A stretch of DNA of 63,994 nt, the filler included, from Dimargaris cristalligena (taxonomy: Eukaryota): NCBI GenBank assembly GCA_003614675.1. It is 3 parts of 3 records of this genome, joined end to end, with 100 filler letters (N's around TTAATTAATTAA, not from the genome) between each part and the next. Parts side by side here need not be neighbours in the genome. Positions count along the whole stretch, not along the records: positions 22,177 to 44,229 come from ML002643.1; 2 more parts are not named here. The stretch is one strand, 5' to 3'. Made by a program: the position numbers and the translations under genes. A model generated the notes under the pieces. It was given only the letters and a program-made list of their open reading frames with translations, was not told the origin of the DNA and made no database searches. Below are positions 17,554-57,262 of the stretch, one piece after another (the first letter of the stretch is position 1; each line of letters starts with the position of its first letter).

Positions 17554-18483
17554 ATGACCTCACCACCCGCCAAAGAAAAGCCCATCAACTCCCTGCTTGC
17601 CGGGGCCGTGGCTGGGGCCGTCGAAGCCACCATCACGTATCCCACCGAGTACGTCAAGACCCAGGTCCAGCTCCAAGGGGCCAGCCCGTCCACCGCCAAC
17701 CGCCTCGCCTTCAAAGGCCCTCTGGACTGCGTGGCCCAAACTGTGCGCACCCAAGGCATCACCGCGCTCTACCGGGGCCTGTCTGCGATGGTCATTGGCA
17801 CGGCCGCCAAAGCCGGAGTCCGGTTCCTCTCCTACGACTTTTACAAGGCCCAGCTGGCCGACGAGCGGGGTCAACTGACCGGGTCGCGGTCCCTCCTGGC
17901 GGGCCTGGCCGCGGGTATGACGGAAGCCTTTCTGGTGGTCACCCCCACCGAGGCCATCAAAACCAAACTAATCCACGACCAGAATTTGGCTAACCCACAA
18001 TACCGGGGATTAGTCCACGGCGTGTCGTCAATTCTCCGGCAGCAAGGCCTACCGGGTATCTACAGCGGGTTATTTGCCGTGATGCTTCGACAGGGTGCCA
18101 ACGCCGCCGTGCGGTTCTCGGCCTACAACGCCATTAAGCAGTGGGTGATTAATCGCAAATACCCCACGGACGACCCCGCCATGGCCCCGCCGCCGAATTT
18201 GGTGCTGCCCTGGACGACCACCTTCATGATCGGAATGGCCGCGGGTACCATCACCGTGTACACCACGATGCCCGTGGATGTACTAAAGACGAAAATGCAG
18301 GGTATTAATGCCAAGGCCCTGTACCGGAACTCGTTCCACTGCGTTTGGCGGACCTTCCAAGAAGAGGGTGTGCTGGCCTTTTGGAAGGGAGCGACCCCGC
18401 GGTTGTCACGACTAATGTTCTCGGGGGGCATTGTCTTTAGTGTGTATGAGCAGGTGATTGCGGTGATGCGGGCTATCAACTAA
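17554..18483 (+). CDS. CTP1: Mitochondrial citrate/tricarboxylate carrier (SLC25A1-like), intronless
   Basis: Three carrier repeats (YPTEYVKTQ, TPTEAIKTK, MPVDVLKTK), KAGVRF, RQGANAAVRF and GATPRLSRL. An upstream in-frame ATG at 17404 is an alternative start. Confidence 0.92.
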   Translation: MTSPPAKEKPINSLLAGAVAGAVEATITYPTEYVKTQVQLQGASPSTANRLAFKGPLDCVAQTVRTQGITALYRGLSAMVIGTAAKAGVRFLSYDFYKAQLADERGQLTGSRSLLAGLAAGMTEAFLVVTPTEAIKTKLIHDQNLANPQYRGLVHGVSSILRQQGLPGIYSGLFAVMLRQGANAAVRFSAYNAIKQWVINRKYPTDDPAMAPPPNLVLPWTTTFMIGMAAGTITVYTTMPVDVLKTKMQGINAKALYRNSFHCVWRTFQEEGVLAFWKGATPRLSRLMFSGGIVFSVYEQVIAVMRAIN

Positions 18484-19449
18484 GTTTCCCATCTCTCTCT
18501 GTTGTTTTCCCTTTTTGTTTCGCTTTTTTGGTATCTCACATGACCCACTGGCCATTTTCCCCCTCCTACGGCAACCCGAACTGTTGGGAGACATCGGCGC
18601 AGTGAACGATCTCCATGCTCCACTCTTGATATATCCCTTTTAAAAACAACTGCCCGGGTAACAGGTGCCGATTCTCGCGTTTATATATAAATATACTAGA
18701 TCTACACATGTATTTGTTTGGGTAACTGTATTATCCGCTGCCTTTCATAGCATTCTTGTATCCACCCCACTAAAGAGTCGACTACGCGCACAGCACAGGG
18801 GTTAGAATTATGTGGCTATGCCTCCACTACTATAGTCGGAATCCATTCTGAGGAATCGGACGGACGCTCCGCTGGGGGGTTTCCTAACCGCTTTAAGTAT
18901 TTCCTTGGAGCTCCCCCCTGGTTAACGGGTGTTTTAGTGGAAAGTCGAGTTGTAATCATGGCGCATCCCATTCAGAATACCGAATAATATCAAAGTCCTG
19001 TAAGTCTATCCGGCTGATTTTTTGAACAAAGCGAGGAGGGTAATGTCACTCAATATTCCCAAGCTAGTTCCTAGATACTGGGGTTATAGAGCTAATATGG
19101 ATCCACAATCTTCCAGATTTTGCTCTGTTCTATTTCAATGAACTCCCTAGGAAACATACCTGTGTACTATTGTCACAATTCCTTTTAAAGCATCCACTCA
19201 CCAAGTCTTACTACTTCCCCCCCCCTTTATTATCCTTGGCTTGTAGACTAGTACGCAGTTCTGGAGTCATAGGGAACCATCATCGTGCACCCCCACCCAG
19301 GTAGTGTTGTACCGCAGTGTTCAGGCACATAAGATCAGCAGGGTAATAAAGTGGCATACTTCCCATCGGGGGAGCTACCTCGATTCCCTTACCTTGACAG
19401 TGGATTCTCCTACTGTACGGGATCCCCTTGTCAATTGGAATTCCCAACC

Positions 19450-20886
19450 ATGCTCACATTGGCCACCACTCCTCCGACCCATTCCGTTGGATTGGAGCTC
19501 CTGCAATGGCTGCTCAGTCCAGCCCGGTTCTCACTAGGCCGTCGCCTCATAGGCTCACTCACCACCCACGACCAGGTACGTCTAGCAGCCACCTGCCATT
19601 TGCTGCGCCATCTGGTTGAACCCATTTACCAGTTGGATTGTCAGCATAGGGTTGGCGAAGAGCCCATGGCCCCGGCCCTGGCCCGGATTCTCTCATCCCA
19701 GGGGGACGCCATTCGTTCGTTGGAAATCCAACTCCTGGCACAAACCCTCGCCGACGATAGTGACGCCGCCTGGGCCGAAGCGCACCGCATCTTCCGTCGG
19801 CTATCCCATTTGGACTCGCTGACGGTGCAATTGGATAGTTTCGGGCTATGGCCTGTGGTGGCTGACTGGCTGACGAGTCTTCCGAAGGCTCCACGTCAGT
19901 TAAATGTGGTGATTGCGAATGACGACTGTTTCAACGAACCTGAACCCGAATCCGAGGCTGACGCCATCAGTGAGGGGTGTATCCCCGATGCTACCTGCGA
20001 TTTTCTCGGGCGAATCCGAAGCTTAAGTCTCCACGTGGCCCTCGATATCGAGGATTTCGGCATCGAAGTGGTTTCGGCCGATTCCATCGCGGGTTTCCTA
20101 TACCCGTTCGTAGGACTTCGGTCTCTTCGCATCAACTCTAAGACTACCAATGATAGTTTAACTCAGTTACTAGTGAATAATTTCTCAACTTTGGATCGAC
20201 TGGAACTAATCGGGGGCCAGTGGAACTGCGGAATCTTATTTAACCCCGACCAATTGACTTTCCGCCGCCTGACGGGCCTTGAACTCGCTTTGGATAATAA
20301 TGAGGCCAGCGCCGGCAGTTTTTCGCGCATATGCGCACTGAACTACCCCTATTTAACAAATCTGAAACTACATTATTCTAACTACCTATACGAGAGTGAC
20401 CAGCTGATCAATCGTGACCAAATTCAACTGTTCGACCAACCCTGGTCTTCGATCACTTCCCTTACCATTACCAATACACTCCTCTCCGATATGCTGGGCT
20501 CGCTTATTGTCCACCACTTCCCTAAACTTACCCATGTGCGTATCAGTGAATGTCCCAACATGGCCCCTATATGTATTGAGATGGTGTCCAAATGCCGCCA
20601 ACTTTCCTCGGTAGCATTATGGTTTTGTAACAAGGCGGAGGCTTCGGCATTTTGGGAAAGCGACTTTACCAATCATTCAGTGACGCGGTTATCCCTTAGT
20701 CATGTAGTATGCCCCGACTTCTTAAACACGGCCCTACGGCGCCTTCCCAATCTCCAAGAGATTGGCCTTCCAGCCGACCAATCAGCCGATTCAGGCCCCG
20801 ATTTTTATCACAAGCATCCTGGAATCCGTCGTGTAAACGATTGTAATCCGGGTCAATATGAGGATCGAATCCCGTTCCTCGAATAG
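19450..20886 (+). CDS. Putative F-box-like / RNI-type leucine-rich-repeat protein, intronless
   Basis: N-terminal LIGSLTTHDQVRLAATCHLLRHLV resembles an F-box. Repeated LxxLxL motifs (LSHLDSLTV, LRSLRI, LTGLEL, LTNLKL, FPKLTHVRI, LPNLQEI). The start is uncertain. Confidence 0.6.
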   Translation: MLTLATTPPTHSVGLELLQWLLSPARFSLGRRLIGSLTTHDQVRLAATCHLLRHLVEPIYQLDCQHRVGEEPMAPALARILSSQGDAIRSLEIQLLAQTLADDSDAAWAEAHRIFRRLSHLDSLTVQLDSFGLWPVVADWLTSLPKAPRQLNVVIANDDCFNEPEPESEADAISEGCIPDATCDFLGRIRSLSLHVALDIEDFGIEVVSADSIAGFLYPFVGLRSLRINSKTTNDSLTQLLVNNFSTLDRLELIGGQWNCGILFNPDQLTFRRLTGLELALDNNEASAGSFSRICALNYPYLTNLKLHYSNYLYESDQLINRDQIQLFDQPWSSITSLTITNTLLSDMLGSLIVHHFPKLTHVRISECPNMAPICIEMVSKCRQLSSVALWFCNKAEASAFWESDFTNHSVTRLSLSHVVCPDFLNTALRRLPNLQEIGLPADQSADSGPDFYHKHPGIRRVNDCNPGQYEDRIPFLE

Positions 20887-22076: not shown

Positions 22077-22176
22077 NNNNNNNNNNNNNNNNNNNNNNNN
22101 NNNNNNNNNNNNNNNNNNNNTTAATTAATTAANNNNNNNNNNNNNNNNNNNNNNNNNNNNNNNNNNNNNNNNNNNN
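22077..22176. other. Artificial contig linker (44 N + TTAATTAATTAA + 44 N)
   Basis: Six-frame stop spacer inside Ns. An identical copy is at 44230-44329. Confidence 0.98.

Positions 22177-22233
<57 letters not shown>
22177..22233. repeat. (ACT)19 microsatellite at the contig start, just upstream of the RDI1 ATG
   Basis: Read directly from the sequence. Confidence 0.95.
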
Positions 22234-27814: not shown

Positions 27815-30800
27815 TTACAACAGTTCAGTATCCTCTAGATACTGATACTCAAACCTGTACATACGGGGAAGAGAGATCATTAGGCATGGGGGGGGATATA
27901 ATGGGTTCATGAGGTTTAGTAATGTGGGGATTTCATACTGAAATAAGGGCTGCAATATTACCAATACAAGGGGTACTAAGATGGGCGGGAGGACAGACCC
28001 ACCTCACCCCGTATACCACCTAGCCCACCGGCTAAAAACTGTTACTTACTTGAAATCGGATTTTTGCCGCGGGCACCAGCCACCTTCATAGTCGAAAAAC
28101 ACATAAGTGCCAATCTCGTACTCGTCGGTTGTGAGTTTGGGCTTCTCATGTCGCTGGAACCATGTGAGGTACCGCTTGTGGAAGCGCCAGGACTGTCGCT
28201 GCAGTTCCTGAGCCGCCAGATAGCTGGGGGTTTGAAAGTGTGGGGGTGGTGATAATAGAGTACATAGAATATGATTATAAGTGGGTGCGTAATGATCAGT
28301 TAAAGCAAAAAGAAATAAATAGGGTCTAGACTACAATGTATGACAACCAACGTGCACTAAATACGCCCCCCCTTGGATACACTTAACCGGTTAGACATAG
28401 AATGGCCGTCAACTTACTGCTGGTAGGTATCCTGCTGATAGTAGAATATGAAGAACAGGGTATCGAGATTGAAGTTACTGGCCATGGCCGGTCCATCGAA
28501 AATGGGCAAAGGCACTTGGGGGTAGTACGATGGTGTAGCCGCGGGGGTTTGGGGGACGTACTGCCGGGGCTTCTCCGAGTCGGCCAAATCCGGCAGACAC
28601 TGGAAACTCGTCTCCGTCATTTGGGCCTTGAAATGGGGGTCAGAATTCCAACTCTGGTTGCCGGGGGCCTCTTCCAGAGACTGCAATAGATCACCGAAAG
28701 CAGCCCCTAGGTCCTGGTGCTTAAAGTAATCCAGTGGGGGGTAAGAGGCGTCCGCCGCTGACGTGGTCGTGGCCGTTGTCGAGGTCGTTGATGCCGACAT
28801 CGTATGGGTAGCAGGTCCGGGTAAACTGACTGGTGGGGGCCGGGCAATTCCTAAGGGAGTCGACGCCGCCGTGGGGGTCGGTGGTACCGAAGCGTCCATG
28901 GACCCGGACCGGCCCATCGTGTCCATGGAAACGGAGGCCTCCCGGGAAGGTAGCGCCGAAGAGGCGGACTGGGAGATGGTACTACCGGTATGGCTGACCG
29001 CAGACGACATGGGACTACGTAGGTCCGTAATGGATGGTGATGGCATATTGGCCACCACCGGGGTAGCCGGCTGACTCGTGGTGCTGGATGGTGGTAATGA
29101 CGAAGAGACGACCGAAGAGTAGGGCTGAGGGGCCGTGGCCGAGGTGGGGGTGGTGGGCATTGGGACCACGGGGGTTGAAGCCACGAGTTTGGCCAATTTG
29201 GCCGCAGCATTGGTGTTGGCGGCCCAGGCATTGGTTTCGGGTTTGGATACCGTATCCGATTTGGTCGAGGGCCGGGTGTCAAGGGAAGCGGAACTGGTCC
29301 CGGTTTTGGCGGGGGAGCTGGCGGTGGTACTACCCAGGGGAACGGTGCTCGTCCGTTTAGCGGGGAAGGCTGTTGAAGCGGTGGTGGTCTTAACTCCGAC
29401 TAATTTAATAGTAGACCGACCCGTCGTACCGGTGGTGGTAATGGGGGTAGGGGCCGGAGTCTCCGGGATTGGTGGTTCAGCGATCTTAGGAGAACTCTTG
29501 GCACTGGCGGGCTGATCGGGTGTAGAGGGCTCCTTTTCCTTGGACTTGATGGGTCTTTCCTCCTCCTGCTCGTGGGCATTTGGACCCATGTAGTATTCAT
29601 CGTTAAGTCCGAATTCGTCAACGTCGCTAAGTCCTAGGTCGTCATAGATACCTTCATCCTCTTCAAAGTCATCGTCCTGGCTACAGTCCACGTAGTACTG
29701 GACATCTTCTTGGATCTCGGTTATCTGGGGATTGGAGGGATGGGGGGAGTGGGAACGGGGATGGGTGTGATAGCAGGAAGGGAGGGGGTTAATGAATTAA
29801 TAATATGAGGCGACCCGCTGAGCAGGAATGATAATAATAATGATCGGAGGGATGTATTAAATAATACGGGCGAGATGCCCGGTAAACACCGAAAGCCTAA
29901 TTAAGCTCTAATGGGGCAGGGTAATCATTTGAGAGCCACTTATATAAGAAAAATAGTGGAATGGGACCACCCATCCAGTAACATGGAGGGGTGAAAGTAT
30001 TTGGAGAAGGGGGGAAGCACACGCACTACACTTACCTCGTCAGGCTCGATCCGCCCGTTTTCCATTGACCGGAGCATCAGTTCTAACCGCTGAATGTGCC
30101 ACTTATGCCGGTCGACTTGCCGTTCGATCCCTTTTATCCGGGAGGCCTTATTCGAGTCCTTCTTGCCTTTTTTCGGACCGGTGGATAGACCTTCGGCCTC
30201 GGCCTCCAAGATATCGATTTGAGTGTTGAGCTGGTCGACGATGGACGAGATCCAATTACTGACTTCGAGCTTGGCCTTCTCCTTGGGATCCAGTTTCGCG
30301 GTCTGACTTAGGCCCTCTTTCGAATAGGCCTTGGTCTTCATTTCCTTTTCGCAGGCCTTGAAGGTTTCCATCTTCTTTTCGATCATTTTCCGGTTCTCAA
30401 TCAGCTCGCGCTTGTCCTTGATTTCATTGGAGGCGATCCAGGTCTTGATCTGGTCCCGGTGCCGTTGGAGCTTCTTGATTTCTTTTTTAAGGTCCTGCTC
30501 GTACTTTTCCTTCTGGTTGATGTTCGGCGTCGACTGAAGATTATCGAAGATATCCTCGAATGACTCTATGCCTTCGGCAACCCGTTTGACGAGCTTGTCA
30601 ATCTCGCCTGATGGGCCAGGCGGGCGGGGAGTATTGGAAGGGTTACAAAATATAAGACGGAAGGAGGAATAGTCCATAATACACCAAGAATTAAACCAGA
30701 GACCAGGTCAGTACAACGGGTAGTAGGTGTATGGGCGACGGAGGGCGGGGTTAATGGTAAGGAATAGGGGGATGTACTCGACTGCCGAGTAGAGAGGAGG

Positions 30801-32578: not shown

Positions 32579-34377
32579 GGAATGGCACCCGGGAGGATGA
32601 CCCCCACACCCATTCCCCAATATCGCCATAGTCGATGGATTCGCAATGTTTGCGAGAACCGTAACTGAATGGCCTACCAACCCCCTGGTCGATACCGATG
32701 GCCCAGCAGGGTCGCCGGGCCTCCATATAGTCAGCCGGGAGGGTGTGTTTATTACTGCTTGCTCACGTTCGTGGCCCTAACATAGCCAACAGTCGCCGGC
32801 CATGGGGTTTAGCTGTCATTTGCTGGCCATATATAGCGGTTAGAAGGATGTGTGCTGTGATGTGGTGGTGATCTTATGGAGAGGGCCTATAAAAATTAAA
32901 CCACTCGGGTAGATGTCTAAATCAATTCAATTCAATGTAAAGAAATAGGGCGGTTTAGTAAGCACCCGGCCGTAGGTAGGCCTGGCTATTTCTAAAGCGA
33001 AGAAATTAAACACCTGCATCGAGCCCCTCTTCTTCCTTCTTCATTGTTCGCCGTTAGCGCGTTCTTCCCAATTGGATCCCCAGGTAGGTTCATAATTGAT
33101 TGGTTTTGCCGTACCATACCATACCATACTATACTATATTTGATTTTGCTTTATTTGACGTAGAAGTTAAACCCAGTGCGAATGACGAAGGCGTGTGTGC
33201 CTATCCGCGCCTGCGTCGACTTCGGGCTGATTGATTAATTAGTGGACCAATTAGTTAGTTAGTCAGTTAGTTAGCTAGTTAGTCGGATAATGACCCTGAA
33301 TGAATTAAGTCCACGATGATTCCATCGCTGGGGTGGGGATGGACCGCCAAAGTGGAATTATCCATCAGCAATACCATCTGTTCTTCATTCCTTCGCTCGC
33401 CTACAAGTGTCGCATCTGGTGGGGTCTTCCAACCTTTGGCTTTGCATGGCCCTATTCTAGCCAGATTCGTTGCGTGGTGAAAGCACAGCCGAAGTCCCAC
33501 GACCCGGAAGGCTGCAGTCAGTGTATAGGTCTTGTGGCTTGGTGTTAAAAAGACCGACGACGCCGGAGGGGTCTTTTATCTGCCTCGTCTTTCTTGGTCC
33601 TGACCAGCTGTGTTTAGCTTAGCTCCTTCTCTTGCCTTTTATTGTCCGGCAGCCCTCCCTCTTTCCTCCTTCTTCCTTCCTATTTTCCTACGTTCACTCC
33701 TTCCCTCCTCTCGTATTTCACTTCTTTCATTTCCCCTTGAACTCACCTTATTGGTCTCTTCGATTATCTTCCGTCCTTTCGTTCACTTTAGCTTCAACAA
33801 CGACGGCCAGTGTCGTTTAGTTTATTGTTGCGCACGTATGTTCGTTGTGGCCCTTGTGGTCGCCGCCAACCCACTTTCTTATCAATCAAGGTGTCACCCC
33901 TTCGTATTTCCGGCTGTATTGGATTTATAGACCACTATTGCTCATTATTCCTTCTTTCAGCAAGCATTTATATATAGGTATTCCGTTTGGGCGGCTCCAT
34001 TGCTTATCTTGCACACCAGCCTTTCCCCCCAACCATTTTACATCTTTCAGGGTTTGTACTACACCCCTGGACCCGCGTTTCTTTTAATGGTATATTGGAT
34101 GCGCCTAGGAATCCAGGCCAGTATCCCCGGCTCGTTTCTTAATTTAGTGTCCATTCCGTCGAATTCACGTATATACATTTACAATAATACATCGATATAT
34201 CTATATATATCTCTATATCTATATATATATATAGATAATATATATAAATAGGTACCTAACTGCCTGGTGACCACCAACCTAAACAGACCCCACCGTTTAC
34301 CTATTTCGTCATCGCCGTGTATTTTACCCCCCGCCCTATTCCTTCTTCTATCATCGATTGAACCCTGCCCTCCAACC

Positions 34378-36042
34378 ATGTTCCAGGACCGTTACTACCG
34401 AACCGACAGGGGGGTATCCACCTCGGACCCCCTGGACCTCCGGTCTGGGTTCGCCCATTCCCTGTTTGAGCCCATGGCCGCGGCTGCCGCTGCCGCCACC
34501 GCCTTTTCCATTCCCATTACCATTCACTCCAGCAGTAGTAGTAGTAGTAGCAGCAGCGGCAGTCGACCTTCTAGTTCCAGTAGTCGCACGTCGTCTCCCG
34601 CTCCTAGAGAGTTCCCCTACCGTCCCCAGAACTATAGTCGCAGTAGTAGTCGGGACCGTAGTCGAAGCCGGAGTCGGAGTCCCAGTCCTAGTCCCTTCTT
34701 CGCCCGAAACAGTCCTAGCCCTAGTCCCTCCTCATTCGGCGGTCCCTCCTTTTTCTCCCGCTCCCCCTATGGTCAACCCAGCACCACCAGCGGCAGCAGT
34801 AGCTGGCGTCACGTAAGCGAGGCGGTGGAATCGGCGGCTGAAGACGAAGCCGGCGACTCCCAAACGAACCAGTTCCGATTCGGAACCTTTAACCACAGGA
34901 GTCGCTGGACCCCCTCGGACCAAGACAATGACAACCATGGGGTCGGTAGCATTCACCGGCCGCAAGCCCGGGCCGCCACTTCCGCCGCGCTCCGGTCCTA
35001 CTTGGGTCTCGACGACGACGACGCTTCCTCCCCCGAGGACGACCACGACCATGACAGTACGCCCCCCGCCCCCCTCGGTCGCCAGGACTTTGACCAATTC
35101 CAGGAATTATTCCGCAAACACTTCGATATGCGTCCACCATTAAGTCGTCCCACCTCACCCTCCCCTCACTCAATCTACCGGCAATCCTCCTCTTCGACGT
35201 CTTCGGCCGCGTCCTCGCCCCCGACGTCGACCACGAACCAACCCATTTTAAGGTCCTGGTTTCCCTCCGAACCCGAACCGGAACCGTACACCGTCAACGG
35301 CCGCCACCCGAACGGAACGGCCTACGGCGAACATTGGTTCCCCAATTCCCCCGTCCCGGTCCGTAACGATACCGACCTTAGTGACAGCGAAGATGGGATC
35401 GTCCACTTTAGGGTACCCCAGCTCAAGACCGTTACTCCGCCCAACTCGTCCCAATCCACTTCTTCGTACCGGTCCGGCGAGAAGTCCTACAGCATCGACG
35501 GCGGCCACAAATACCCACTCATCTATGTACCCTGGCGGAACCGGTACCTCGCCCGCCGGGTGGCGGTCAGCAACGGCAGTTGTCTGTTCCACGCCCTCGC
35601 TTTTGCCACCAAAAACCGCTACGGGCGCGCCCAGTCCCTGCGGCGCTACGTCTCCCGGTACATCGTCAAGTACCCCGACGTGTATTACGAAGCCGCCGCC
35701 GCATCCCCTACCCGCACCGCCGAGGAATACGCCGAACGAATTCTACATCCCCGCGAATGGGGCGGCGCTTTGGAAATCAGTATCCTGTCCCAATTATTCC
35801 AAATGGAAATCAAATCGCTCTATATTCACGACGGTCGCATCGATCACTACGGTGAACATATGGGCTATTCCGAAGTCGCTCTCCTCCTGTATACCGGTAG
35901 TCATTACGATGCCGTGGGTATGACCGACCATTTGGACGAGTCCTACGAAGATGATCAGACCGTGTTCCCCGTGGAAGACGGGTCGATCATAGCCGCCCTG
36001 CATAAACTCGGCGACAAAATTGTGGCGAGCAAGGCTGCATAA
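34378..36042 (+). CDS. OTU1/YOD1-like deubiquitinase domain behind a long Ser/Arg/Pro-rich disordered N-terminus, intronless
   Basis: SNGSCLFHALAF (Cys), EWGGALEISILS, RIDHYGE, LLYTGSHYDAV (His/Asp) and DQTVF. Confidence 0.85.
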   Translation: MFQDRYYRTDRGVSTSDPLDLRSGFAHSLFEPMAAAAAAATAFSIPITIHSSSSSSSSSSGSRPSSSSSRTSSPAPREFPYRPQNYSRSSSRDRSRSRSRSPSPSPFFARNSPSPSPSSFGGPSFFSRSPYGQPSTTSGSSSWRHVSEAVESAAEDEAGDSQTNQFRFGTFNHRSRWTPSDQDNDNHGVGSIHRPQARAATSAALRSYLGLDDDDASSPEDDHDHDSTPPAPLGRQDFDQFQELFRKHFDMRPPLSRPTSPSPHSIYRQSSSSTSSAASSPPTSTTNQPILRSWFPSEPEPEPYTVNGRHPNGTAYGEHWFPNSPVPVRNDTDLSDSEDGIVHFRVPQLKTVTPPNSSQSTSSYRSGEKSYSIDGGHKYPLIYVPWRNRYLARRVAVSNGSCLFHALAFATKNRYGRAQSLRRYVSRYIVKYPDVYYEAAAASPTRTAEEYAERILHPREWGGALEISILSQLFQMEIKSLYIHDGRIDHYGEHMGYSEVALLLYTGSHYDAVGMTDHLDESYEDDQTVFPVEDGSIIAALHKLGDKIVASKAA

Positions 36043-39918: not shown

Positions 39919-42190
39919 TTAAATAACCCCAGTAATATCCGATTTCGACGCCCGTCCAAGACCATTGGTAAACGCAGCAATAGATTCTCTGCACTGAAGC
40001 ATGGGTTGATTGGCTGGGCCAGTTGTCAGCTGTGCATTGTACTCCCGAAGGAAATGGAGGGCATCGGCTTGCGAGCCCAAAGCCAGTTCCTGGGCAATGA
40101 ATTCCACAGACACACTGGATCGGTAGCTAAATACAGCGGAGGGATGTGTACATTTAAAAAGAGGGCAGATTGTGGCAAAAGCAGATAAGTATATATCCGG
40201 GTGGTAAAAAAATGGGGCATGGACTAAACCGATAGCACACAGCCGTAGCAGTAAAAATCCCCCGATAAAGTATGGCAATGGGTCCTCCTATATTTAATGC
40301 CGAAGGGATATGTTCCCCGGATGTTTTGCTTACCTTTGCGCAATAATAATCAGGGCCAATACCCGCTGCCGTGTAATAAAATGGTTCATGACCAATTTGT
40401 TCATGTTAGGCGCTTGGGTAAAGAGACGGAACAGGCGGTGGTAGTTAAGCGTGGTCACCGCTGTACGCACGTCCAAGGCATGTCGGACACCTGGGTTGGC
40501 CTTTTGCTCAGGGGTGAGATTGGTAATGGTGGAAATCATATCTGTAGGGAGGGGGTGATCAGTATGAAGGGAACAAATGAAACATATCAACGGTTAGTTA
40601 ATCCAACGCATCCATGCACACCATAATTTAGTCATGCGGGATAGGCGATTCTCCTATATACAAGCTAATTGGCCTATTTTTTAAAGAAATAAATGACTTA
40701 CCCGACTTCTTGTTCACATGGATTAGGTACAGGATATAATAGCCCAAAAACTCGTTAACATGGCCGTTGATGCCCAGCCCGTAGAGTTCCTTGAGTTTCG
40801 TAAAACACAGGTTAAACTCGCCCAAATCGCCCGACTCCAGCGCAATCCAGGCATGGCGCTCGTAAACCTGGACAGTGAATTCATTCTGAATTCGCTGGAC
40901 GGTCAAGTCCTGGCGCAGGGATTTAAACTGATCCCGAATATAGGGATAGTGGCGCTCGCGCTCCCATTTGGCCACCACGTGGTCCAGGGCCTGGCGGAGA
41001 ATGTGCAGGGGTCGGATGGTGGCCGGATTGGCCGGGCCAGTTAAGCGGAAGTATTTCTTTTCCAGCTGGGTCGCCGTCCCTACGACGGTGTGCTGGTCCC
41101 AATCCCGAACTCCCACCGCGCCGGCAGCATCCGCCGACGTAGCCAGAGAAATCCGCTTGGACTCGGGGGGCGAGTCGGAGGGGTCCTGCTTAAACCGTTC
41201 CAGGCGCCTCTGGCGCATCAACAGCTCTCGATTGCTGACCGACTTACTCGAATTAGCAATGGTAGTGGTAGGGGGGCTAGGACTCGCGGACCGTTTAAGG
41301 GAAATGGAGGGCTGGCGCGACGGAGGTGATAATTGGCGAGGGGCCAGCTGACAGCTCCGGGGCAGGGGCGTATTATCCCAATCGGTTAACAGCAGCTCGT
41401 CGGTCTTTAATTTATCCATAATTATGACCTTGAGGTCCTGTTCAACCGCATCCCGGTTGCTTGAGTGGGCCTGGCGGTAGGCCCGCGTGACAAAGTCCCG
41501 TAAATCCGGGGGCCAGTTGTTGGCGATGGATGACTGGCTGAACGCGTCAAATGTGGAGGCGGGCACCGATTTAGCGGGGGAAGGGGTCTGGGTCTGAGGG
41601 GCCGGCTGGGCCTTTACAGCGACTGGTACCGGAGTCTTGTTCTTCTTCTTCTTCTTTTTAGAAGGTATTTTGACCGCAGTGTAGGCCGGTGGGGTCGGGC
41701 GGGGACTGGCCTGAGATACACTGGCGACAGGTGCCTGAGTTTGGGCCGGCGGGGGTGGAGGAGGGGGCTGATCCACTGGCGCGGTAGGTGCGGCCGGCGG
41801 GACCTGGTGGGCAGTCCAGCTGGGGTGGGGCATGTGGTAGGGCGAATAGCCGGGATAGGTCGGGTAGTGGTAGCCGGCGTATGCCGCGGCATAGGCGGAA
41901 TAGTCGACTGCACTTGTCGGAGCGGTTGTTGTAGTGGCGGTACTAGAGGGGGTGGTGACAGAAGCAGGTGGTGGCGGATTAGTACTTGCCTCAGAAGAGG
42001 ACTGGGGAGTAGTCCCTTGGGCGGGCGGAGGCGGGTAGTGCTGGTGGGCCGCTGAAGGCGGATACCCGTAGGCGGCCTGGGGATACCAGGGGTAGGCCTG
42101 GTACGGCGACGCGGGCGGAACCGCGGCGTAGGACCCCGTGCCCGCAGCCCAGGGATTGGGGGCGGAGGAATTACCGGTGGAGGGATCCAG
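39919..42190 (-). CDS. THP3: THP3/LENG8-like SAC3/GANP-PCI protein; exons 42190(CTG; first in-frame ATG 41833)-40702, 40541-40334, 40126-39919
   Basis: WPPDLRDFV, TDWDNTPLP, VVGTATQLEKKYFRLT, DQFKSLRQDLTVQRIQNEFTVQVYERHA, GDLGEFN, NYHRLFRL and C-terminal SKSDITGVI. Confidence 0.9.
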
Positions 42191-43030
42191 GGTGAAGGAT
42201 GCAGAAAGGGGCCAAGATGGAGGCCGAAACAGGGGGAAATGGGTTAGTAAAAGTAGGGAGAGTCGGGCTCTACAGGTCTACTGGGAAAAAATACCACCAC
42301 TGAATTCTTCTGGAAGTAAAGAATGCCAACGATTATTACACGGGTAGTGGACAATAAGGCCGGAGTATTTAAACGATGCGAAAGGAGGGAACAGTAGGTA
42401 GTTAGGCTAAGGCAGGTTGTGGAGAGACTGAAACCGGGGAGGAAAGAAAGAGCCAGCAGTAGTGAAAGGCAAAGCAATGCTTCACGAGGAATATAAAATA
42501 ACAGAAGGAAGTGATGAAACAACCGAAGCAATAGAGGACGAAGAAGGAAAGGGTAACACAAAGTTGTAGCGATGGGCCCCGCTAAATACATTGTTTAAAA
42601 AGAGGCTGAGAGGGAAAATCCAATGTAATAAACATCGTCTCCTCCCATTTCATTTCCTATATCCTCCATATTGGCTTGACAGCGCACCACCTGTTTCCCC
42701 TCTAGGGTCAGGTGACTCCCACCAGAACCACCCCATACTGTATTTACTACTGTACCCATTCCAACCAACTCAATCCCAAATCTCTCTCAGTTGGTAGGTC
42801 GCTTCTCTCTTTTACTATAGGCTGGATAAAATAACTACCGACAGGTGCAGAGCGCATATACAAAAGCAACGGTGGTGAACAATCCCCTCGAATGACGAAC
42901 AAAACTACTCCGCCTTCTTCCTATCCAAGTTCAAGTCCAAGTCCAATTCTCAACTCGTTTGCACTTCTAACTGCTGTTTCGCCTGAATTCCCCTCTTTAC
43001 CTACCTACTTCCCTTACCCTTCTCTTCCCC

Positions 43031-43792
43031 ATGCCCGCCGACTCTACCCGTACTCCACCAAACGCTTGGAACAGCAATGTTGCCATTGATGTCTACCCAC
43101 GGCCGGGGTCGTCCGCTGCCCTTCTGCCGCCGCCTAACCGCCCCACCTCCAACTGGGTCGATGACGAACAGCAGCTGCAAACCACCGTTCTTCGTCAGCA
43201 GGACCAGCAGCTTGACTCTGTGATGGGCACCGTCAAGAACATCCGCCAGATGGCCCACACTATGGGCTCCGAACTAGAGGACCATAACGTGTACGTCGTA
43301 TTCTATAGTCTCCAGTCTATAATTGTATGCCAAGTACAGCTCCCGAATACCCCAAACCACCCCTCTTCTTACTGATTGTTTATGCTTCTATTCAACTACA
43401 ATACCTTTCCTGCTATATATAGGATGCTCGAGGAGATGGATACCCAGACCGACTCCACACAAAACAAGCTATCCCGGGCCATGCGGGGCATCGATACCAT
43501 CATTCGGAAAAACTCAAGTAGGTACCTTACTGGCTAACCCCCCCCCACCTCCTATACTATATCATTTCGGCCGGCACTATCCCAATATCACCTATATTAC
43601 ATGCTCCTTACCAAAACTACCTCGTCTATTACCTGTAACCCCAAGCCTAACTAACCACTGCCTCTTATTTTATTTAATTTTGCATTCCATTTTCCCCTCT
43701 GACGTATTTCACTAGGCAACAAGTCATTTTACCTAATTTTATTCCTCATTCTGACCATCTTCATACTACTGGCTCTGGTCATCTTTACTTAA
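43031..43792 (+). CDS. Short (143 aa) Qc-SNARE of the Tlg1/syntaxin-6 type with a C-terminal TM anchor; exons 43031-43290, 43423-43517, 43716-43792
   Basis: SNARE motif RQQDQQLDSVMGTVKNIRQMAHTMGSELEDHNVMLEEMD..QNKLSRAM and tail anchor FYLILFLILTIFILLALVIFT. Confidence 0.85.
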
Positions 43793-44175: not shown

Positions 44176-44229
44176 TGGAGGACCAGGGTATCGATCCCCG
44201 TGCCTCTCGCATGCTAAGCGAGCGCTCTC
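44176..44229 (-). tRNA. tRNA-Ala(AGC), 5' end truncated by the contig end
   Basis: Minus strand reads GAGAGCGCTCGCTTAGCATGCGAGAGGCACGGGGATCGATACCCTGGTCCTCCA: anticodon arm CTCGC-TTAGCAT-GCGAG, eukaryotic Ala-type GATCGATA T-loop, then a T-rich Pol III terminator. Confidence 0.9.
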
Positions 44230-44329
44230 NNNNNNNNNNNNNNNNNNNNNNNNNNNNNNNNNNNNNNNNNNNNTTAATTAATTAANNNNNNNNNNNNNNN
44301 NNNNNNNNNNNNNNNNNNNNNNNNNNNNN
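44230..44329. other. Artificial contig linker (44 N + TTAATTAATTAA + 44 N)
   Basis: Identical to 22077-22176. Confidence 0.98.
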
Positions 44330-48232: not shown

Positions 48233-51200
48233 ATGTCCGATTCCTCGCTCCACCGCCCCGTTGCTGTGCAGCCCTCGCCGCGGGCCGCCATCTCCCGTCG
48301 TCCCGTGGCTGCCGTCGCCAGTCCCGCCGCCCCATCTCGTACCGCGCGAGCCCGTCCCTTCGACGCGACCACAGGCTCCCGTATGACTTTTCGCGAACGC
48401 ATCGCGAAATTCCAGGCCCATTTCCCCAACGGCCCGCACTTCCCCTCGAGCGACCACCACCTGGCTACTTTCGTTCGGCCCTGCCAGGAGTCCCGCACTT
48501 CCCCCCCTTCTACCGCGGCTACCCCTCAAGTTCCCAACAGCACCTCACCTTTCCCCGTGGCATCACCCTCGCCAGTCGCCGATCCTAGCGGGGTCCATTC
48601 GAATGCCAAATCCCGCCCCTCCCCTCGACTGTAAGTACACGGGTCTAGGCAAGCGCGCCCACTTCAACCTTCCCTTTCCCTACCCGTTTGGAGCACCGCT
48701 GGTTGGCCCATGTGTGCCATGAGCCCCGCCACTCATTGCCTTGTCCTACCCGTCCCTGCCTAATCCATTTTGCTGCTGTATTCTGTTCTTATCCTACTCC
48801 CTTTCTTAGTAGCCATTCCAAACCCGCGACAGCGGTCCCTCGCCGCCAATCGCTTTCACAACCTGCGGCCCCCAGTAGCCTGAAAAGGTTCGCAGCTTTC
48901 TTAATATATATATATATATATATATATACGCTTATTGTCTCCTACTCTAGCTTATACTTTAGACCCTTGTCTCGGGTGTAGTCAGACCCTTGGGGTCCTG
49001 GACTATCATCAGCCGTGGGCTATATAGGGGGTCTTTACTCTCCGTACATATTTTTCCCAGCGTCGTTGAGTCGCTTCGTTCCTTCACTTATCCACTCCCC
49101 CCCATTGTTTGTATATTAACCACCTCCACCCCCCTTTTCGAATGTCCCTTTACTACCCACCCCTTCCTCACACTACCATGGGCCCCTAGACCACTGCCGG
49201 AGTTCAAGGAGGAAAGTAGTCCTAAGCGGGCGTCCCACCAGCCCCTGCCTGGTCTTAGTTTACGGGATATAATGAGCGAGCTGGAGGTAATTGCGCTTGA
49301 ATGTCTACTATGATGCGAGTTCTTTCTTATCTGCTTACTCGCCATGATCTGGGCCCGGTCTCGCTCGGGCCCCTTTAAAGTGTCTACTCTACGGAGATGA
49401 TGGCCCATAGGAAGGCCGGGGTCCTTTACCCAGCACTTTACCCAATTAGGAGAATGCACCGGTCGGGTGGATTGTCCTCGTGTGGTGTGAATTAGTGACT
49501 GGATCTGACCTCACTCCAGATTTTTCCAATGTACCATGCGACTAACCCCACGTTTCGTAATTATTGGATTACTTGTTATACTCCGATGACGTACGAACCC
49601 TTTCAGCTTATGCAAGCGTCCAACTGCCCCACCCCTCTAAGTCCAACCCTGCCCCCATTCACGTTTCTCAGGAGTCCTCTCGCTACGGCTATTATTTCTC
49701 CCCCGGCTGATAGTTCGCATCGCCCCGATGTTCCCGCCCTAGCGCCTACTCCACCTAATATAGAACCGGCCGCGTCCTATCGAACACCGAGCTCGCAGGA
49801 AAAACCTGTTACCATTGCTGTAGACCCACCGTCCAATGATGCACGCCCTAGTCGATCCGAACGTAAACGCGGTCCCGAACCCGCGCCTGTTGTCATGGTC
49901 CCTGCCTCTATTATCGTCAAGCTCCCTCTACCTACTCGTAGCCAACCTCTCCGCTCACGGCCTCTGGCCAATCGGACCACCGCTGCCGACCAACTAACCG
50001 TATCTGCCGCCTCGACGAATCGCCCCAAGGACCGCAATCGGACCAAAAGTCCGGTAAATCCCATCGGCGAACCCCGGCGGGCTCCGACCGAATCTAATGA
50101 GCCCCCGCGTCGTTCGGATCCGCGAACCCCCTCGAAGCGGCGCCGCTCGATATCCCCAACCGGGCGCTCAGACACGGCACCGTCCTCGTCGCGTCCCCGG
50201 TCCAAGGGCCGGGATTTAAGCCAGTCTGACGTACCGCCTGAACGATCGGTCCCTCGAAGTAGCTCTAGCCATCGCAAACCCTCAGTTGAACGGTCACGTC
50301 CAAGTCAGCGGCACACTAGCGCCGATTCTGAGGTACAGCGCTCCCCACCGCATCGGGACCGGTCCCTCACCCGACCGCTACCTGCTGCCTCTATACCTAC
50401 AGCCAGCCGAAGTACGACCAAGTCTACCGTGGACACCCCTACACCCAGTGCCACGGTTACCTCCCGATTCGGCGTCCTCCCGACCGAAACACCCCGCTCC
50501 TCCCACCGCAGTCGATCACCTGTGCGACGTACTCAAACCCCGAGTGAACGCACGACCTCTCGCCGACCGGAATCCTCCGGTCGGCGTATAACTAAGGATA
50601 CTGGCGAAGATAAGGATAGAGACCGGCCGCGGGACAGCGGTCGGGATAGGGAGCGCGAGCATGCGTCTCATAACTCTGATTGGGATACTGACCAACCCCA
50701 GCGCAGAGACCGTTCCTCAGTCGAACGGTCCCAGTCTCGGGAAGCCACCCTCACCCGGCGAACCGGCGCTTCCAAGCTGGAGAAAGCGATAGCCAACCAC
50801 GCCAGCCCGGTTCTAGAGGCTACCCGTCATCCCTCCACTACCACCACCGCCAATGCCCGCGGTCCCGAGCCTATAACGCAAAAATCCCGCTCCAATTCTC
50901 ACTCTGCGACGGCGGTTCCCTCCCCTGATACCCCGCAGAAATCAGCCCCCGTACGGTTCTCTATTCAAGCCTACCAGCGGCAGCGGCACTCGGGTACCGG
51001 CGAGGGAGCACCGCCGACCTCTTTGGCCACTGAGACGGCCCCCGGTCCACTTACTCCGGATAACTCGCGGCCCCTAGCTGGATCTCAAACTCGGGCCACT
51101 CCACAACCCGGCCGACATGCCCGTTTAACGAGTAACGATTTAATTGAATGGGGGCGCCGCTACAAGCGGGCGGGCCATACCAACTTGGCCAGCCGTAACC

Positions 51201-51862
51201 CAGAGCAACTCACCCTCGGAATAGTTCAGATCCTCCGGGCCAACTTAATTTTCTTGATGCAATACCATGAACTGGGGGACCATCGCGCTACGCAGGATAC
51301 CTTCAACGTGTTGAGCACGGCCCTTCAGTTTGCCAAGTGGGTTTCCGGCCAATGCAAAGCGCACCGCCTGACCACTTTATTTGGCCTTGCGCAGCAGATT
51401 GAGGCCGTGTTCCAACACCGGCTGGGGTTGCTCCACTTCAAACAGTTAGACGGGGAGATTCGTCAAGCGGCAGTGCAAAACGGTCCCCGGCCCAGTAGCA
51501 CCGTGCTTTCCCCGCCCTCCATAGACTCGTTGGCGGAGAGCAGTGCTAAGGGCACCCATAATCTACGCGAGGCTGAAAAATGCTGGCGGGACGGCTCCGA
51601 GGAGTTTTCTCTCCATACCCTAATGAGCAAATTCCCCAACACCTGGTCCCTTTGCCAAGGTTCCTCGCCGTCCGGGGACACTCGGCTTCCTACCACGGGC
51701 TTTACTTCAGCCCGTGCCGCCGTTGATTCCATTGTGGGCTCCAGCTCGGTCCATTGGCCGGTCTCGGTGATTTCCCCGATTCCGAATTTTATCGGATTTT
51801 TAGACTGTGTACTCTTTGAGTATGCTTACCAGCATAAAATTAACTACCGACTCGAGCGGTAA
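48233..51862 (+). CDS. Large disordered protein with an Ebp1/AF4-FMR2-like C-terminal helical domain; exons 48233-48630, 48810-48887, 49190-49286, 49607-51862
   Basis: Splice phases chain in frame. LSPTLPP motif, R/S/D-rich middle, and C-terminal domain WGRRYKR..LFGLAQQIEAV..LMSKFPNTW..PVSVISP..LDCVLFEY. Confidence 0.6.
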
Positions 51863-53084
51863 CCCTCTCCCTATTCATTTGGTCCGCATGGCCCTATTGC
51901 GACGGGAGTTGGGCCCCTGTTATAATCATAATATGATTATTCCCTGGGACCTAGATTTGAGATTGTGGCTATTCGATGGACCTGCCGACCCTTCGTCTCT
52001 CCCTGTTTCCTCGTGGGCATTTACCAGATGCCATTCAACAAACGTGTATTTATAAATAGACGGGGCCGCTGGCTTCGTTTTTACGCCATTTTCATTTTGT
52101 TTTTATTTACAACACCACTCATCCGCACCTCCCCCGTCCTTTGTGTGTTTTTTTGTCCACTCCTGTGCTTATTTGTCTGTTTTCACACTCATAATTTGAT
52201 AAGGTCCCAACTTTAAGTGTGCACCCATTTCGAATTTTTAATTACAATTGACTTAAACGTTTTTCCAAGTGTGTTGCAAGTCCCTATTTTCATTATGCCC
52301 TTCTTCCATAGTCATTATTATTATTATTATTCCTATTTTTTATATATACCAAACAAAAGTATGACGGCGCCTCCCCGCTTTGTAACATTTACCACTTTTT
52401 CCAATCTAACATACGTGATATTCCATATTTTTTTATCACAATATTACACCTTCTGTATTTAGGCCTGTTTCCGCCTTTCCGTGGCTCTGGCTGGCATTTT
52501 TGTTGTTGTTGTTTTTTTTCGTTTTTGACAATGACTCCAACTTCCTATATCGCTGCACTGCTCTCAATATATACATTTGGTCATTGAGCCATGACCCCTT
52601 TGCAATAGACCTATTTTACCTGGTTAACGAAATGAACTTGCGGGCCGAGCATAAGGGAAATTTAGTCTTTGTGGACTTGGGCATATAACATGTGGCCAGT
52701 GAATTATCCTAGGACATAATCCAACCAAGTGGAACTAATAATGTCACAGGTAGGATTAAAACTACTACTGCCAGTAGGCCAATATTATCTTGTCTAATTT
52801 CATATATTTGCTTGGTTTGTGGGGGGCTCTCTTAGGAATATTCACCCTTATTATAGGGAGTCGGAATGACTTACCTGGAATGAGTAAACGTAATCTATAT
52901 AACGTTAATATTATCGTTATTTTTTCGGTTCTTCCAACCCACCTCCTCAAGCCCCAACCTACCTCCGTGTCCCGATTGGGTTTAATTGTGTTTTTCCATT
53001 TTACTAGCTAGATATTTTTAATTCGGCTCCATTATTTGGTTCTAGCTTGCATTGTACCTTTCATAAATCTCCCCAGTCACCGCC

Positions 53085-54386
53085 ATGAGCCAGACTTACT
53101 ACGAGGTTCTCGAGGTTGACGAACAGATCGACGAGCATGGCCTCAAGCGGGCCTACCGGAAAATGGCCATGAAGTTCCATCCGGACAAGAACCCGGAGGG
53201 GGCCGACCGGTTCAAGGAGATCCAGCACGCCTACGAAATCCTCAGCGATCCGGACAGCCGGCGCATGTACGACCAGTTCGGGGAAGCCGGGCTCGATGGC
53301 GCGGGGGGACCCGGCGGTCATTCGGGCGGTCATCCGTTCCCGGACGATATTTTTGCGGATATCTTTGGGGGGACCGAATTTTTCGGTGGGCCTAATATGG
53401 GAGGAGGTCCACCACCCCCTTCGTCGCGGCCCCAGAGAAGCGGTCCGGCCCAGGAGAAACCCCATGACTTGGACGTGTCGCTTGCGGACCTGTACACAGG
53501 CAAAAAGTTCCGGATGGCCCTGGAGAAGAAGGTGGTGTGCGGGGTATGTGACGGCTCGGGTAGCCGCACGGGCAAGACTTTCAAGTGTAAACTGTGTGGT
53601 GGCCAAGGGTTTACTTTGGCCACCCGTACCTTGGCCCCGGGCCTGACCCAGCGGATCCAGGTCGTATGTTCCGGCTGCCACGGGGAAGGTCGCATCATTC
53701 GTAAGAAGGACCAGTGCCGCAAGTGCCACGGTGAAAAGGTCGTGCGGGCCCGCAAGGTGGTCACTATCACGGTCGAACCGGGAATGGCCGATGGTGATCG
53801 GATCACTCTGGCCGGACAGGGTGACCAAACGCCCGGCCAGGATGCCCCGGATGTCATTTTTGTGCTCCGGCAGACGGAGGACGCCAAGTTCCAGCGTAAA
53901 GATAATGACTTGCACACCGCCGTGTCGATTTCCCTGGGCGAAGCCTTGGTCGGATTCAACCGGCAATTAGTCACCCACCTCGATGGCCGGGGTCTCGTGG
54001 TCAACCAGCCGACGGGCAAGGTCGTCCGGCCGGGTCAGGTGAAGTGTATCTACAACGAAGGTATGCCCCATCGCGGCAAGCCCCACCTGCGCGGGGCCCT
54101 CTACTTGACGATTGATATTATTTTCCCTCCCGATCACTGGATCAAGGAGGCCCGGGAAGTGGCTGCCCTCAGCGACCTACTACCGTCGCTGTCCGCCCAG
54201 GATACCCCAGCGCCCGCTGAATCAACCACCACGGTAGCGTTGGCGCAAGTGGCTGATGATGTCAATCCGTTCGCCCAACCCGAACCGGCCCACGGGCACC
54301 AACACTACGACGGGCCCCATGATTACGACGAATTCCACCAATACGGAGGCGGGGCTCCACCCGAAATGGAATGCAATCAACAGTAA
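53085..54386 (+). CDS. Type I DnaJ/Hsp40 (Ydj1/Xdj1/DNAJA family), intronless
   Basis: J domain with HPD, G/F region, four CxxCxGxG-type repeats and a C-terminal CaaX-type CNQQ. Confidence 0.95.
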   Translation: MSQTYYEVLEVDEQIDEHGLKRAYRKMAMKFHPDKNPEGADRFKEIQHAYEILSDPDSRRMYDQFGEAGLDGAGGPGGHSGGHPFPDDIFADIFGGTEFFGGPNMGGGPPPPSSRPQRSGPAQEKPHDLDVSLADLYTGKKFRMALEKKVVCGVCDGSGSRTGKTFKCKLCGGQGFTLATRTLAPGLTQRIQVVCSGCHGEGRIIRKKDQCRKCHGEKVVRARKVVTITVEPGMADGDRITLAGQGDQTPGQDAPDVIFVLRQTEDAKFQRKDNDLHTAVSISLGEALVGFNRQLVTHLDGRGLVVNQPTGKVVRPGQVKCIYNEGMPHRGKPHLRGALYLTIDIIFPPDHWIKEAREVAALSDLLPSLSAQDTPAPAESTTTVALAQVADDVNPFAQPEPAHGHQHYDGPHDYDEFHQYGGGAPPEMECNQQ

Positions 54387-55314: not shown

Positions 55315-57262
55315 ATGTCCAAAGCTGTATCGACACTCGGCGGCTCGTTAGCGGCCAACACCGCTGAGTACCTGGCCCGGAACTCCTCCATTCCCGCATT
55401 CCTAAGCAAATTGTACAGGTAAGAATGGGCCCCACTTCTTGCTAACCTCCATTGCTTTCCCTGGCGATGTCTTTTAAAATTCTTATTATATCTACATACC
55501 ACAAAATAAGGAAAACTTGCTATCCCGAACTCTCGCTTCGTCGTTCACATAACTCGTTCTACCAAAGAATACGTCCCTCAAGGCCGAATGCCAAGCCGTC
55601 AGCACACGTTATTCTCTTCAGCCACCTTTCTTAACTCGATCAACCACCCCTTAACACCAATCATTTGATTGGCTTTTACATTTTTTCATACCACACCATC
55701 TATCATTCACAAAATAGAATGGTCGACGATGTATCAACCGACGGCTTAATAGCCTGGGCCGAGGATGGTGATTCGTTTTATGGTAAGTGACCACTGTCAC
55801 CAAAATTGAACACTATAGCCGTATACACTGCGACTACACCGCCTACATTAAGCCGTCCAATTTTAGTCTAATTCCCTGACACCAACTATAAATCCGCGGA
55901 TTTAATAATATTATCACCCCATTGACCTGAATGGCCTCTACAATTTAATCAGTTTTCAAACCAGAAAGCTTCGCTAAACAGGTCCTGCCCCGCTACTTCA
56001 AACACAACAATTTCGCAAGCTTCGTCCGCCAATTAAATATGTATGGCTTTCACAAAATTCCCCACCCGCAGCAAGGCGTACTTAAGGCAGACCCTGGCAC
56101 CGACAAGCTGGAATTCAGCAACCCCCACTTTAAAAAGGACCGCCCCGATTTGCTGTGTTTTGTTCTGCGCAAGCGCTCCAAACCCGAGGATGACAAGCAA
56201 TCTGATATTATGGACATGCAGCGCGTTCTCCAGGAACTGGCCACGATCCGCAATCACCAGATGGCTATTAGCGACGACCTGCGCAAACTCCAGCAGAACA
56301 ATGCCCTCCTGTGGGAAGAGGCCGCTGCGGCCCAGCAACGCCACCAGCGGCACCAGGCCACCATTGACAAAATCCTACGGTTCTTGGCCTCGGTGTACAC
56401 CACCACCACCAATTCCACCCGTTCCCTATCCCGGAAACGACCCCTGCTGATCGAACCCCTGGACCAGGAGGCGGCGACCAGTCCGGCCAAACGGCCCCAT
56501 GTACAACAACATCCACAGTCGTCCCCTCGGCCGACCACCGCTCCCCCGTCGCCGGCGTCAGCCCTGGACCCGGGCCTTGTCCCGTCCAGTCCGTCAGTGG
56601 ACCCGAGCATGATCGATATGCATAACCCATTGGACCCGAATGCCCATTGGCAATACCCCTTAGACCCCAATGTGCTCTCCCGGCTAGGCCATTACTTGGG
56701 TCTGGCTGACATTGGCGCGTCTGCCCCTCCCCCGGCCCCAACTACCCTCCTCACCGTGAACCCCCATCCTCTATCGACCCCGCCAGCTGGGTCTGCTCCC
56801 CTACCCACTCTCGCCCCCGCCCCAACTTTGGCCCCCGCACCAACAATACCCCTTTCCTCGGCTGCGTCGAGCCCCACGCCCAATAACCACCTGCCCCTCA
56901 ACCACCAGGATATAACCGATAGTATGGACCAGCTCAAAAATAACCTAGATTCCCTCACTGGTTCGTTTGGGTTTGATTTCCACAATACCCCCATGGAACA
57001 GTTTCCATTCAATATGGGCGATTTATTAGGGTCCGAGGATGCCCTCCACCAATTTCTTAACCTGCAGGAGACCGCCAAGAACCCAGGCTCGCCCAGGCCA
57101 CCTGAAATTCCATTAACCACAACCGCCGCTACTCCACCCCCCGCCCCCGCCTCCCGCAAACCCATTTATATAGTTATCCATTGCCCTACGGGTTGCCCCA
57201 ACTGTGTGTTTATTTGTGTATTATTATTACCACTACCTGGGTGGAATCTAAATGTTTCCTAG
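55315..57262 (+). CDS. HSF1: Heat shock transcription factor; exons 55315-55418, 55718-55782, 55953-57262
   Basis: IPAFLSKLYRMV, LIAWAEDGDSF, VLPRYFKHNNFASFVRQLNMYGFHK, and the HR-A/B region NALLWEEA..RHQRHQATIDKILRFLASVY. Confidence 0.93.

Follow-up and report, generated by a model that had tools for sequence, protein, structure and literature searches.

Which codon starts the protein encoded by the THP3/LENG8 gene in the Dimargaris cristalligena assembly GCA_003614675.1, given that the reading frame continues far upstream of the first in-frame ATG? The stretch of DNA analysed here (the window; 63,994 nucleotides, nt, filler included) is composed of three contigs, and the gene lies on the minus strand of the piece at 22177-44229 (ML002643.1, about 22 kb), about 2 kb from the piece end. 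An earlier note on this DNA had proposed that translation begins at a CUG codon (CTG 42190) situated 119 codons above that ATG and preceded by a long ATG desert. The observation was confirmed by our analysis, while the interpretation as a whole was partly supported. Judged from its sequence, the 119-codon extension is truly coding and is the counterpart by homology of the family's low-complexity N-terminal region, and CTG 42190 appears to be the only plausible in-frame start, standing at the place of the orthologues' Met; the balance tips slightly towards its being genuinely used as a CUG start.

THP3/LENG8 is the PCI-domain partner of Csn12/PCID2-Sem1/DSS1 in nuclear messenger ribonucleoprotein (mRNP) surveillance. 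The earlier assignment of the gene to this family held, as Pfam, database and PDB matches all agree on it. Exon 1 alone matched SAC3_GANP (PF03399) at 34.9 bits (E = 1.5e-8), above the gathering cut-off of 27, and the remainder of the PCI domain is found in exons 2 and 3. The PCI core matched the PDB chains of LENG8 (9dlr_A, E = 2.8e-36) and of yeast Thp3 (7ewf_A, E = 4.8e-27). At E <= 0.001 there were five distinct PDB sequences, each of them a LENG8 construct or yeast Thp3, with Sac3 and GANP chains absent; by these matches, the protein is closer to Thp3/LENG8 than to the Sac3/GANP paralogues. The database search returned 445 family members at E <= 0.001 among 8000 scored candidates, one named match being 'Thp3p'. 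The top matches, with 38-46% identity, were from Dimargaritales, i.e. Tieghemiomyces (488 amino acids, aa), Dimargaris verticillata (629 aa) and Dispira (640 and 642 aa). The 120 family matches that were listed comprise 46 of at least 500 aa (the long matches below) and 74 shorter ones. This sequence evidence identifies the minus-strand gene 42190-39919 as the THP3/LENG8 orthologue of a Dimargaritales-like fungus. No THP3 match exceeded 46% identity, and four presumed single-exon proteins of the window had no exact match in the protein collection, which suggests that the proteome of the organism lies outside that collection.

Counted from the CTG, the spliced coding sequence has 1905 nt and encodes 634 aa with one terminal stop, a length inside the 629-642 aa range of the long Dimargaritales forms, while the protein counted from ATG 41833 would have 515 aa. 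The junction peptides agree with those of the orthologues. From the CTG, about 390 mostly low-complexity residues precede the PCI core. The predicted protein shares with the long orthologues from Dimargaris verticillata and Dispira the PCI (SAC3_GANP) core, the WPPDL(K/R) motif, a lysine-rich stretch after P(A/L)YT(A/S)V, a disordered N-terminus rich in Tyr, Pro and Ala with PW[AGS] near residue 14, and an equal total length. It differs from them in its start: theirs is annotated at an ATG, whereas here there is a CTG, with no in-frame ATG for 119 codons. The coordinates of all these features are collected in Table 1.

Table 1. Features of the THP3/LENG8 locus and of its start region, in window coordinates.
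Feature	Position	Strand	Basis or remark
THP3/LENG8 gene	42190-39919	minus	three exons
Exon 1, counted from the CTG	40702..42190	-	open frame and gene model
Intron 1, 160 nt, GTAAGT...CAG	40542..40701	-	junction peptide agrees with orthologue P0001
Exon 2	40334..40541	-	open frame and gene model
Intron 2, 207 nt, GTAAGC...TAG	40127..40333	-	gene model
Exon 3, stop codon included	39919..40126	-	gene model
SAC3/GANP/THP3 PCI core, first part	40703..41200	-	PF03399; PDB LENG8 9dlr_A, Thp3 7ewf_A
N-terminal extension, 119 codons, low-complexity, rich in Tyr/Pro/Ala/Thr	41834..42190	-	composition, alignment, codon usage
Proposed CUG initiation codon, ttcaccCTGg (A at -3, G at +4)	42188..42190	-	aligns near the orthologues' Met
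N-P-W-A motif, residues 12-15 from the CTG	42146..42157	-	matches PW[AGS] of long THP3 orthologues
First in-frame ATG, taccacATGc (C at -3, C at +4), weak context	41831..41833	-	
First ATG after the desert, out of frame, weak context ccgcctATGc	41890..41892	-	
In-frame TAG, 30 codons upstream of the CTG	42278..42280	-	open frame begins at 42277
Presumed promoter and 5' leader, ATG-free, T/C-rich	42191..42588	-	
Out-of-frame 115-codon ORF, ATG 42591 to TAA 42246-42244	42244..42591	-	composition non-coding (r = 0.15)

The start region was found to be as the earlier note had described it. In the stop-to-stop frame on the minus strand, which begins below the TAG, the CTG is codon 30 and ATG 41833 is codon 149, and the frame is open for the 119 codons between them; the position of the TAG and the A at -3 and G at +4 of the CTG were both verified. 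Listing all the ATGs of the minus strand confirmed that there is none, in any frame, from 42588 to 41893. The first one below that interval, ATG 41892, belongs to another frame, which remains open down to 41614 and so overlaps ATG 41833. No in-frame AUG occurs between the upstream stop and the conserved PW motif, and the only in-frame near-cognate codons between the TAG and ATG 41833 are CTG 42232, CTG 42190 and ACG 42139. At the upstream border of the desert, the open reading frame (ORF) from ATG 42591 would be a long upstream ORF (uORF) should the transcript start above that ATG. As a term of comparison for initiation contexts, the first ATG of 22 long ORFs of the window (whose starts are unverified) has A at -3 in 11 cases and a purine in 16.

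Several signals indicate that the Tyr/Pro/Ala-rich extension is genuine protein, as had been claimed. When amino acid composition was compared with that of residues 2-130 (the first 129 after Met1) of three long Dimargaritales proteins, the extension gave r = 0.96 in frame 0, and 0.45 and 0.25 in the other two frames; the 29 in-frame codons between the TAG and the CTG (42277-42191) gave r = 0.27 and look non-coding. In a MAFFT alignment, Met1 of the Dimargaris verticillata and Dispira proteins falls within a few residues of the CTG. The motif in the window, whose surroundings read A-P-N-P-W-A-A-G, has its W at residue 14 from the CTG. PW[AGS] occurs within the first 25 residues in 8 of the 46 long listed matches and in none of the 74 shorter ones, and elsewhere in the 46 long matches it was found 5 times in 27183 other positions. 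Read from the N-termini of the 8 proteins that carry it (P0002-P0004, P0022, P0043, P0067, P0074 and P0107, from Dimargaritales, Mucor and chytrids), the W is at residue 8-17. Across all 106463 six-frame positions of the window there is a single NPW[AGS].

Alignment and boundary signals are in accordance with this. Smith-Waterman alignment with the first 40 aa of the 46 long matches, evaluated against 1000 composition-preserving shuffles, gave P = 0.007 for residues 1-30 of the extension and P = 0.004 for residues 1-48, while for residues 49-96 the best score showed no excess over shuffles (P = 0.34). A search for change points in T content placed the best ones at 42194-42184, no more than 4-6 nt from the CTG. 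By codon log-odds, frame 0 is favoured only from about 42220 towards lower coordinates, though this signal is weak in sequence of such low complexity. Composition, motif, alignments, T change point and codon usage taken together therefore indicate that coding begins at, or within a few codons of, position 42190. ATG 41833 is a poor alternative start, with C at both -3 and +4 and lying behind an overlapping out-of-frame ATG.

Several observations weigh against a CUG start, and the first concerns the very features that drew attention to the locus. The gap from ATG 42591 to ATG 41892 amounts to 699 nt, more than any other ATG-free stretch of the window on either strand; those of 564 nt on the plus and 400 nt on the minus strand come next. 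Expectations were drawn from first-order Markov simulations with the local composition (5000 each): 3.7 ATGs were expected in the 696-nt desert (P(0) = 0.026), 2.6 in the 398 nt upstream of the CTG (P = 0.066), and 1.5 in the extension, where one was observed (P = 0.54). The desert is weaker than it appears because the strand is locally poor in A and G. In addition, a 119-codon open frame was obtained in 11.7% of mononucleotide shuffles (P = 0.117), and a second frame is also open across the same stretch. Desert and open frame are thus real, yet weakly non-random. The desert, which had been taken as a mark of a non-AUG start, turned out to be largely compositional; since the open frame can also arise by chance, neither is strong evidence alone, and it is homology and composition that count.

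Other points on the same side come from the homology searches and from the family. The PW motif was chosen after the sequences had been seen, and its P-values are therefore indicative only. When the 119-aa extension alone was compared with P0002 and P0003 by BLASTP, no significant match was obtained (E = 4.9; E = 0.17, at an off-target site). An N-terminal hidden Markov model (13 orthologues, 32 aa each), run against 2565 six-frame ORFs of the window, did not retrieve the THP3 ORF, which was absent from the 1123 ORFs listed; the best E was 1.2, and the hits were unrelated short ORFs. The long N-terminal region is often absent in the family, as the 74 listed homologues below 500 aa indicate. 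A hairpin downstream of the CTG was no better than in shuffles (minimum free energy -36.6 kcal/mol, z = -0.02); the leader, too, was neither unusually structured nor unusually unstructured compared with shuffles (z = -0.46). Finally, the orthologues of Dimargaris verticillata and Dispira are annotated with Met at this place, and the CTG is not conserved across these genera. Of the two features whose conservation the earlier note had named as a check, the extension is supported by motif, alignment and composition, and the CTG is not shared. An exact 24-mer adjoining the CTG had 0 matches in metagenome contigs. The whole CUG case hangs on one base in a draft assembly.

That base is the subject of the strongest competing explanation, according to which the true start is an ATG, and the C at 42190 was introduced by assembly or base calling, or else is a private mutation of the sequenced culture. 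A single base separates the context from the classical ACCATGG, the orthologues have their Met here, and the assembly is a fragmented draft; moreover, a CTG not shared with the orthologues of Dimargaris and Dispira would fit a recent mutation as well as an error. Against this, the spliced THP3 frame is intact up to its single terminal stop, and Pfam domains are present in the long ORFs nearby. By our own estimate, short-read assemblies seldom carry a substitution error at one specified base, and the prior for such an error is comparable to, or lower than, that for real non-AUG starts or start-codon substitutions. We therefore regard an ATG hidden by a wrong or private base as improbable, if far from negligible.

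It is also conceivable that the start codon was recently lost, leaving the extension as an untranslated relic and the protein to start at AUG 41833, which would be a step towards the forms with short N-termini that are common in the THP3/LENG8 family. In many of the shorter homologues the protein begins directly with the WPPxLK motif, the annotation of the closest relative has no Tyr/Pro-rich region, and the open frame, as seen above, is not improbable by chance. Many members, including that closest match (Tieghemiomyces), lack the long N-terminus, and the extension must therefore be dispensable in some lineages. Yet AUG 41833, with its unfavourable flanking bases and the overlapping out-of-frame AUG 41892 ahead of it, is poorly placed to take over, and a CUG in optimal context behind an AUG-free leader would still see some use, to go by the account of non-AUG initiation in PMC5666671. 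Since the extension keeps its family composition, the PW motif and a sharp boundary at the CTG, any loss of the start must have been very recent, and we consider such a relic distinctly unlikely.

A spliced upstream ATG exon is unlikely, as far as splice signals can be judged from the DNA, and so is an intron that uses the TACTAAC (about 42249) and the CAG near 42098, both of which are present as the earlier note had indicated (the first AG beyond the TACTAAC is at 42099-42098); a normal AUG start obtained in either way has, in our view, a slim chance. The genome is intron-rich, there are acceptor-like AGs with a pyrimidine tract at 42282-42268, and an enumeration of every ATG from 43086 to 42591 with every downstream GT and every frame-restoring AG produced, on paper, 125 in-frame combinations of ATG exon and intron. 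The best of them joins ATG 42759 to a GTAAAT donor at 42747 and an acceptor at 42278, with a 470-nt intron. None of the 125, however, has a GTAAGT donor, whereas the real introns of the gene have GTAAGT and GTAAGC and measure 160 and 207 nt, and the CTRAY branch matches are at least 124 nt from the acceptors at 42278-42268. With these acceptors, the protein would gain at least 26 residues whose composition is non-coding (r = 0.27), and its W would be shifted past residue 40, far from its place in the orthologues. No AG exists between 42268 and 42099, and the later acceptors, including the CAG at 42098, delete the conserved PW motif.

As for the other two near-cognate codons, CTG 42232 and ACG 42139, both are in frame downstream of the TAG, and the ACG has G at -3 and at +4; nevertheless, the former has C at -3 and T at +4, lies in T-rich sequence of non-coding composition and would make the W residue 28, the latter is downstream of the PW motif, where scanning ribosomes would reach the better CUG first, and a start at either is most improbable.

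Initiation at CUG 42190 thus remains the reading that we prefer, and the following scheme may be proposed for it. An ancestral ATG in the strong ACC-ATG-G context would have changed to ACC-CTG-G. Transcription would begin downstream of ATG 42591; this is needed because the transcript would otherwise contain the 115-codon uORF, which ends 54 nt before the CUG. Scanning 43S complexes would enter the AUG-free, weakly structured, T/C-rich leader and would initiate at CUG 42190 with the initiator Met-tRNA (Met-tRNAi), yielding the full-length 634-aa protein with the N-terminal PW motif and the Tyr/Pro-rich disordered region. Ribosomes leaking past the CUG would meet the out-of-frame AUG 41892 and then the in-frame AUG 41833 in its poor context; because AUG 41892 is reached before the weak AUG 41833, the 515-aa form would be at best minor. 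Three points of this scheme we infer from the sequence: the true base at 42190 is C, transcription begins below 42591 with no splicing in this part, and the CUG is used.

Other systems provide the background to such a scheme. According to PMC5666671, CUG surpasses the other near-cognate codons in efficiency as a rule, initiation at such codons employs Met-tRNAi, and some cellular proteins have a non-AUG codon as their sole start. In fungi, AUG and near-cognate starts are described as having been exchanged repeatedly (PMC7049704), and IDI-4 of Podospora anserina has been proposed to start at CUG only (PMC5487733). As presented in PMC5666671 and PMC5487733, EIF4G2/DAP5 (GUG) and IDI-4 (CUG) resemble the present case in lacking a usable in-frame AUG above conserved coding sequence and in having a near-cognate codon in good context. 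They differ from it in that their non-AUG codon is described there as conserved across species and experimentally supported, whereas here the codon is known from one genome, is not shared by two other genera, and is proposed as a start from sequence. A second point of comparison is provided by NCC6-8 of Neurospora cpc-1 and by the dual-start aminoacyl-tRNA synthetases, in which, according to PMC5487733 and PMC7049704, near-cognate codons (CUG included) start an extension above an in-frame AUG, as would happen here. Those genes produce two isoforms and have a strong main AUG; in the THP3 gene, unlike them, an out-of-frame AUG shields a downstream AUG that is itself weak, so that the extended form would be the main product. 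If real, the CUG start would join the known class of cellular genes started at a near-cognate codon. LENG8 and non-AUG initiation were found together in no title or abstract among the matches listed in our literature search, in which Thp3 was not combined with non-AUG terms.

If the CUG start is true, an early-diverging fungus would rely on a CUG alone to make a conserved housekeeping factor of nuclear mRNA surveillance. This would be a fungal addition to the short list of cellular proteins without an AUG start, and it would suggest that a start-codon substitution is tolerable, given an optimal context and a leader without AUG. The practical consequence concerns gene prediction: gene callers will cut 119 residues, and with them the conserved PW motif and part of the disordered region. 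In human LENG8, a long disordered N-terminal region (residues 1-540) is described ahead of the PCI core and as binding U1 small nuclear ribonucleoprotein (snRNP) and the PAXT complex (PMC12363940); the region equivalent to the lost N-terminus mediates, by that account, U1 snRNP binding. If, on the other hand, the base is an error, an annotation caveat is all that would be left. The locus therefore matters mainly for annotation and as a candidate for testing.

A further step would be to regard the CUG as a fixed, selected start codon of the lineage, which may be common to Tieghemiomyces; we consider this doubtful. The 488-aa annotation of the nearest relative may share the truncation problem, with no ATG at its true start as the cause. 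P0001 (Tieghemiomyces parasiticus, the closest match) begins only 17 residues before the conserved P-A-Y-T-A-V-K and has nothing of the N-terminal region, which is what gene prediction would yield where an ATG is missing. Were the CUG fixed, the abundance of a nuclear RNA-surveillance factor would depend on start-codon stringency (eIF1/eIF5 levels, stress), and the ratio of the full-length form to the short AUG-41833 form could be tuned; the former would carry the region that binds U1 snRNP in human LENG8, of which the latter would lack part.

As regards the surroundings of the gene, the pieces of the window are joined by identical artificial linkers at 22077-22176 and 44230-44329 (44 N, TTAATTAATTAA, 44 N; a six-frame stop spacer). 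An (ACT)n microsatellite occupies 22177-22230 (+), exactly at the contig start, which fits contig breakage at repeats. At the other end, a partial tRNA (44176-44229, -) is cut by the contig end; its Rfam RF00005 score (22.4 bits, E = 0.0081) is under the gathering score and covers model positions 18-71. ARAGORN found no complete tRNA in the window. Upstream of THP3, and separated from it by a common intergenic region of about 840 nt, there is a divergent neighbour gene (42971-43375, +) with its first ATG near 43033, whose first ORF had no Pfam match at E <= 1e-4. Three other long ORFs (49499-51859, 19333-20883 and 5216-6229) were likewise without a Pfam match. The rest of the surroundings consists of ordinary eukaryotic genes bearing Pfam domains, at 1340-2995, 8865-9902, 10861-11970, 15504-16727, 17374-18480, 28417-29796, 34252-36039, 53067-54383 and 55949-57259, whose products include an ABC1 kinase, a class-3 lipase, a DEAD-box helicase, an OBG GTPase, a mitochondrial carrier, Not3/5, an OTU protease, a DnaJ protein (Ydj1-like) and HSF.

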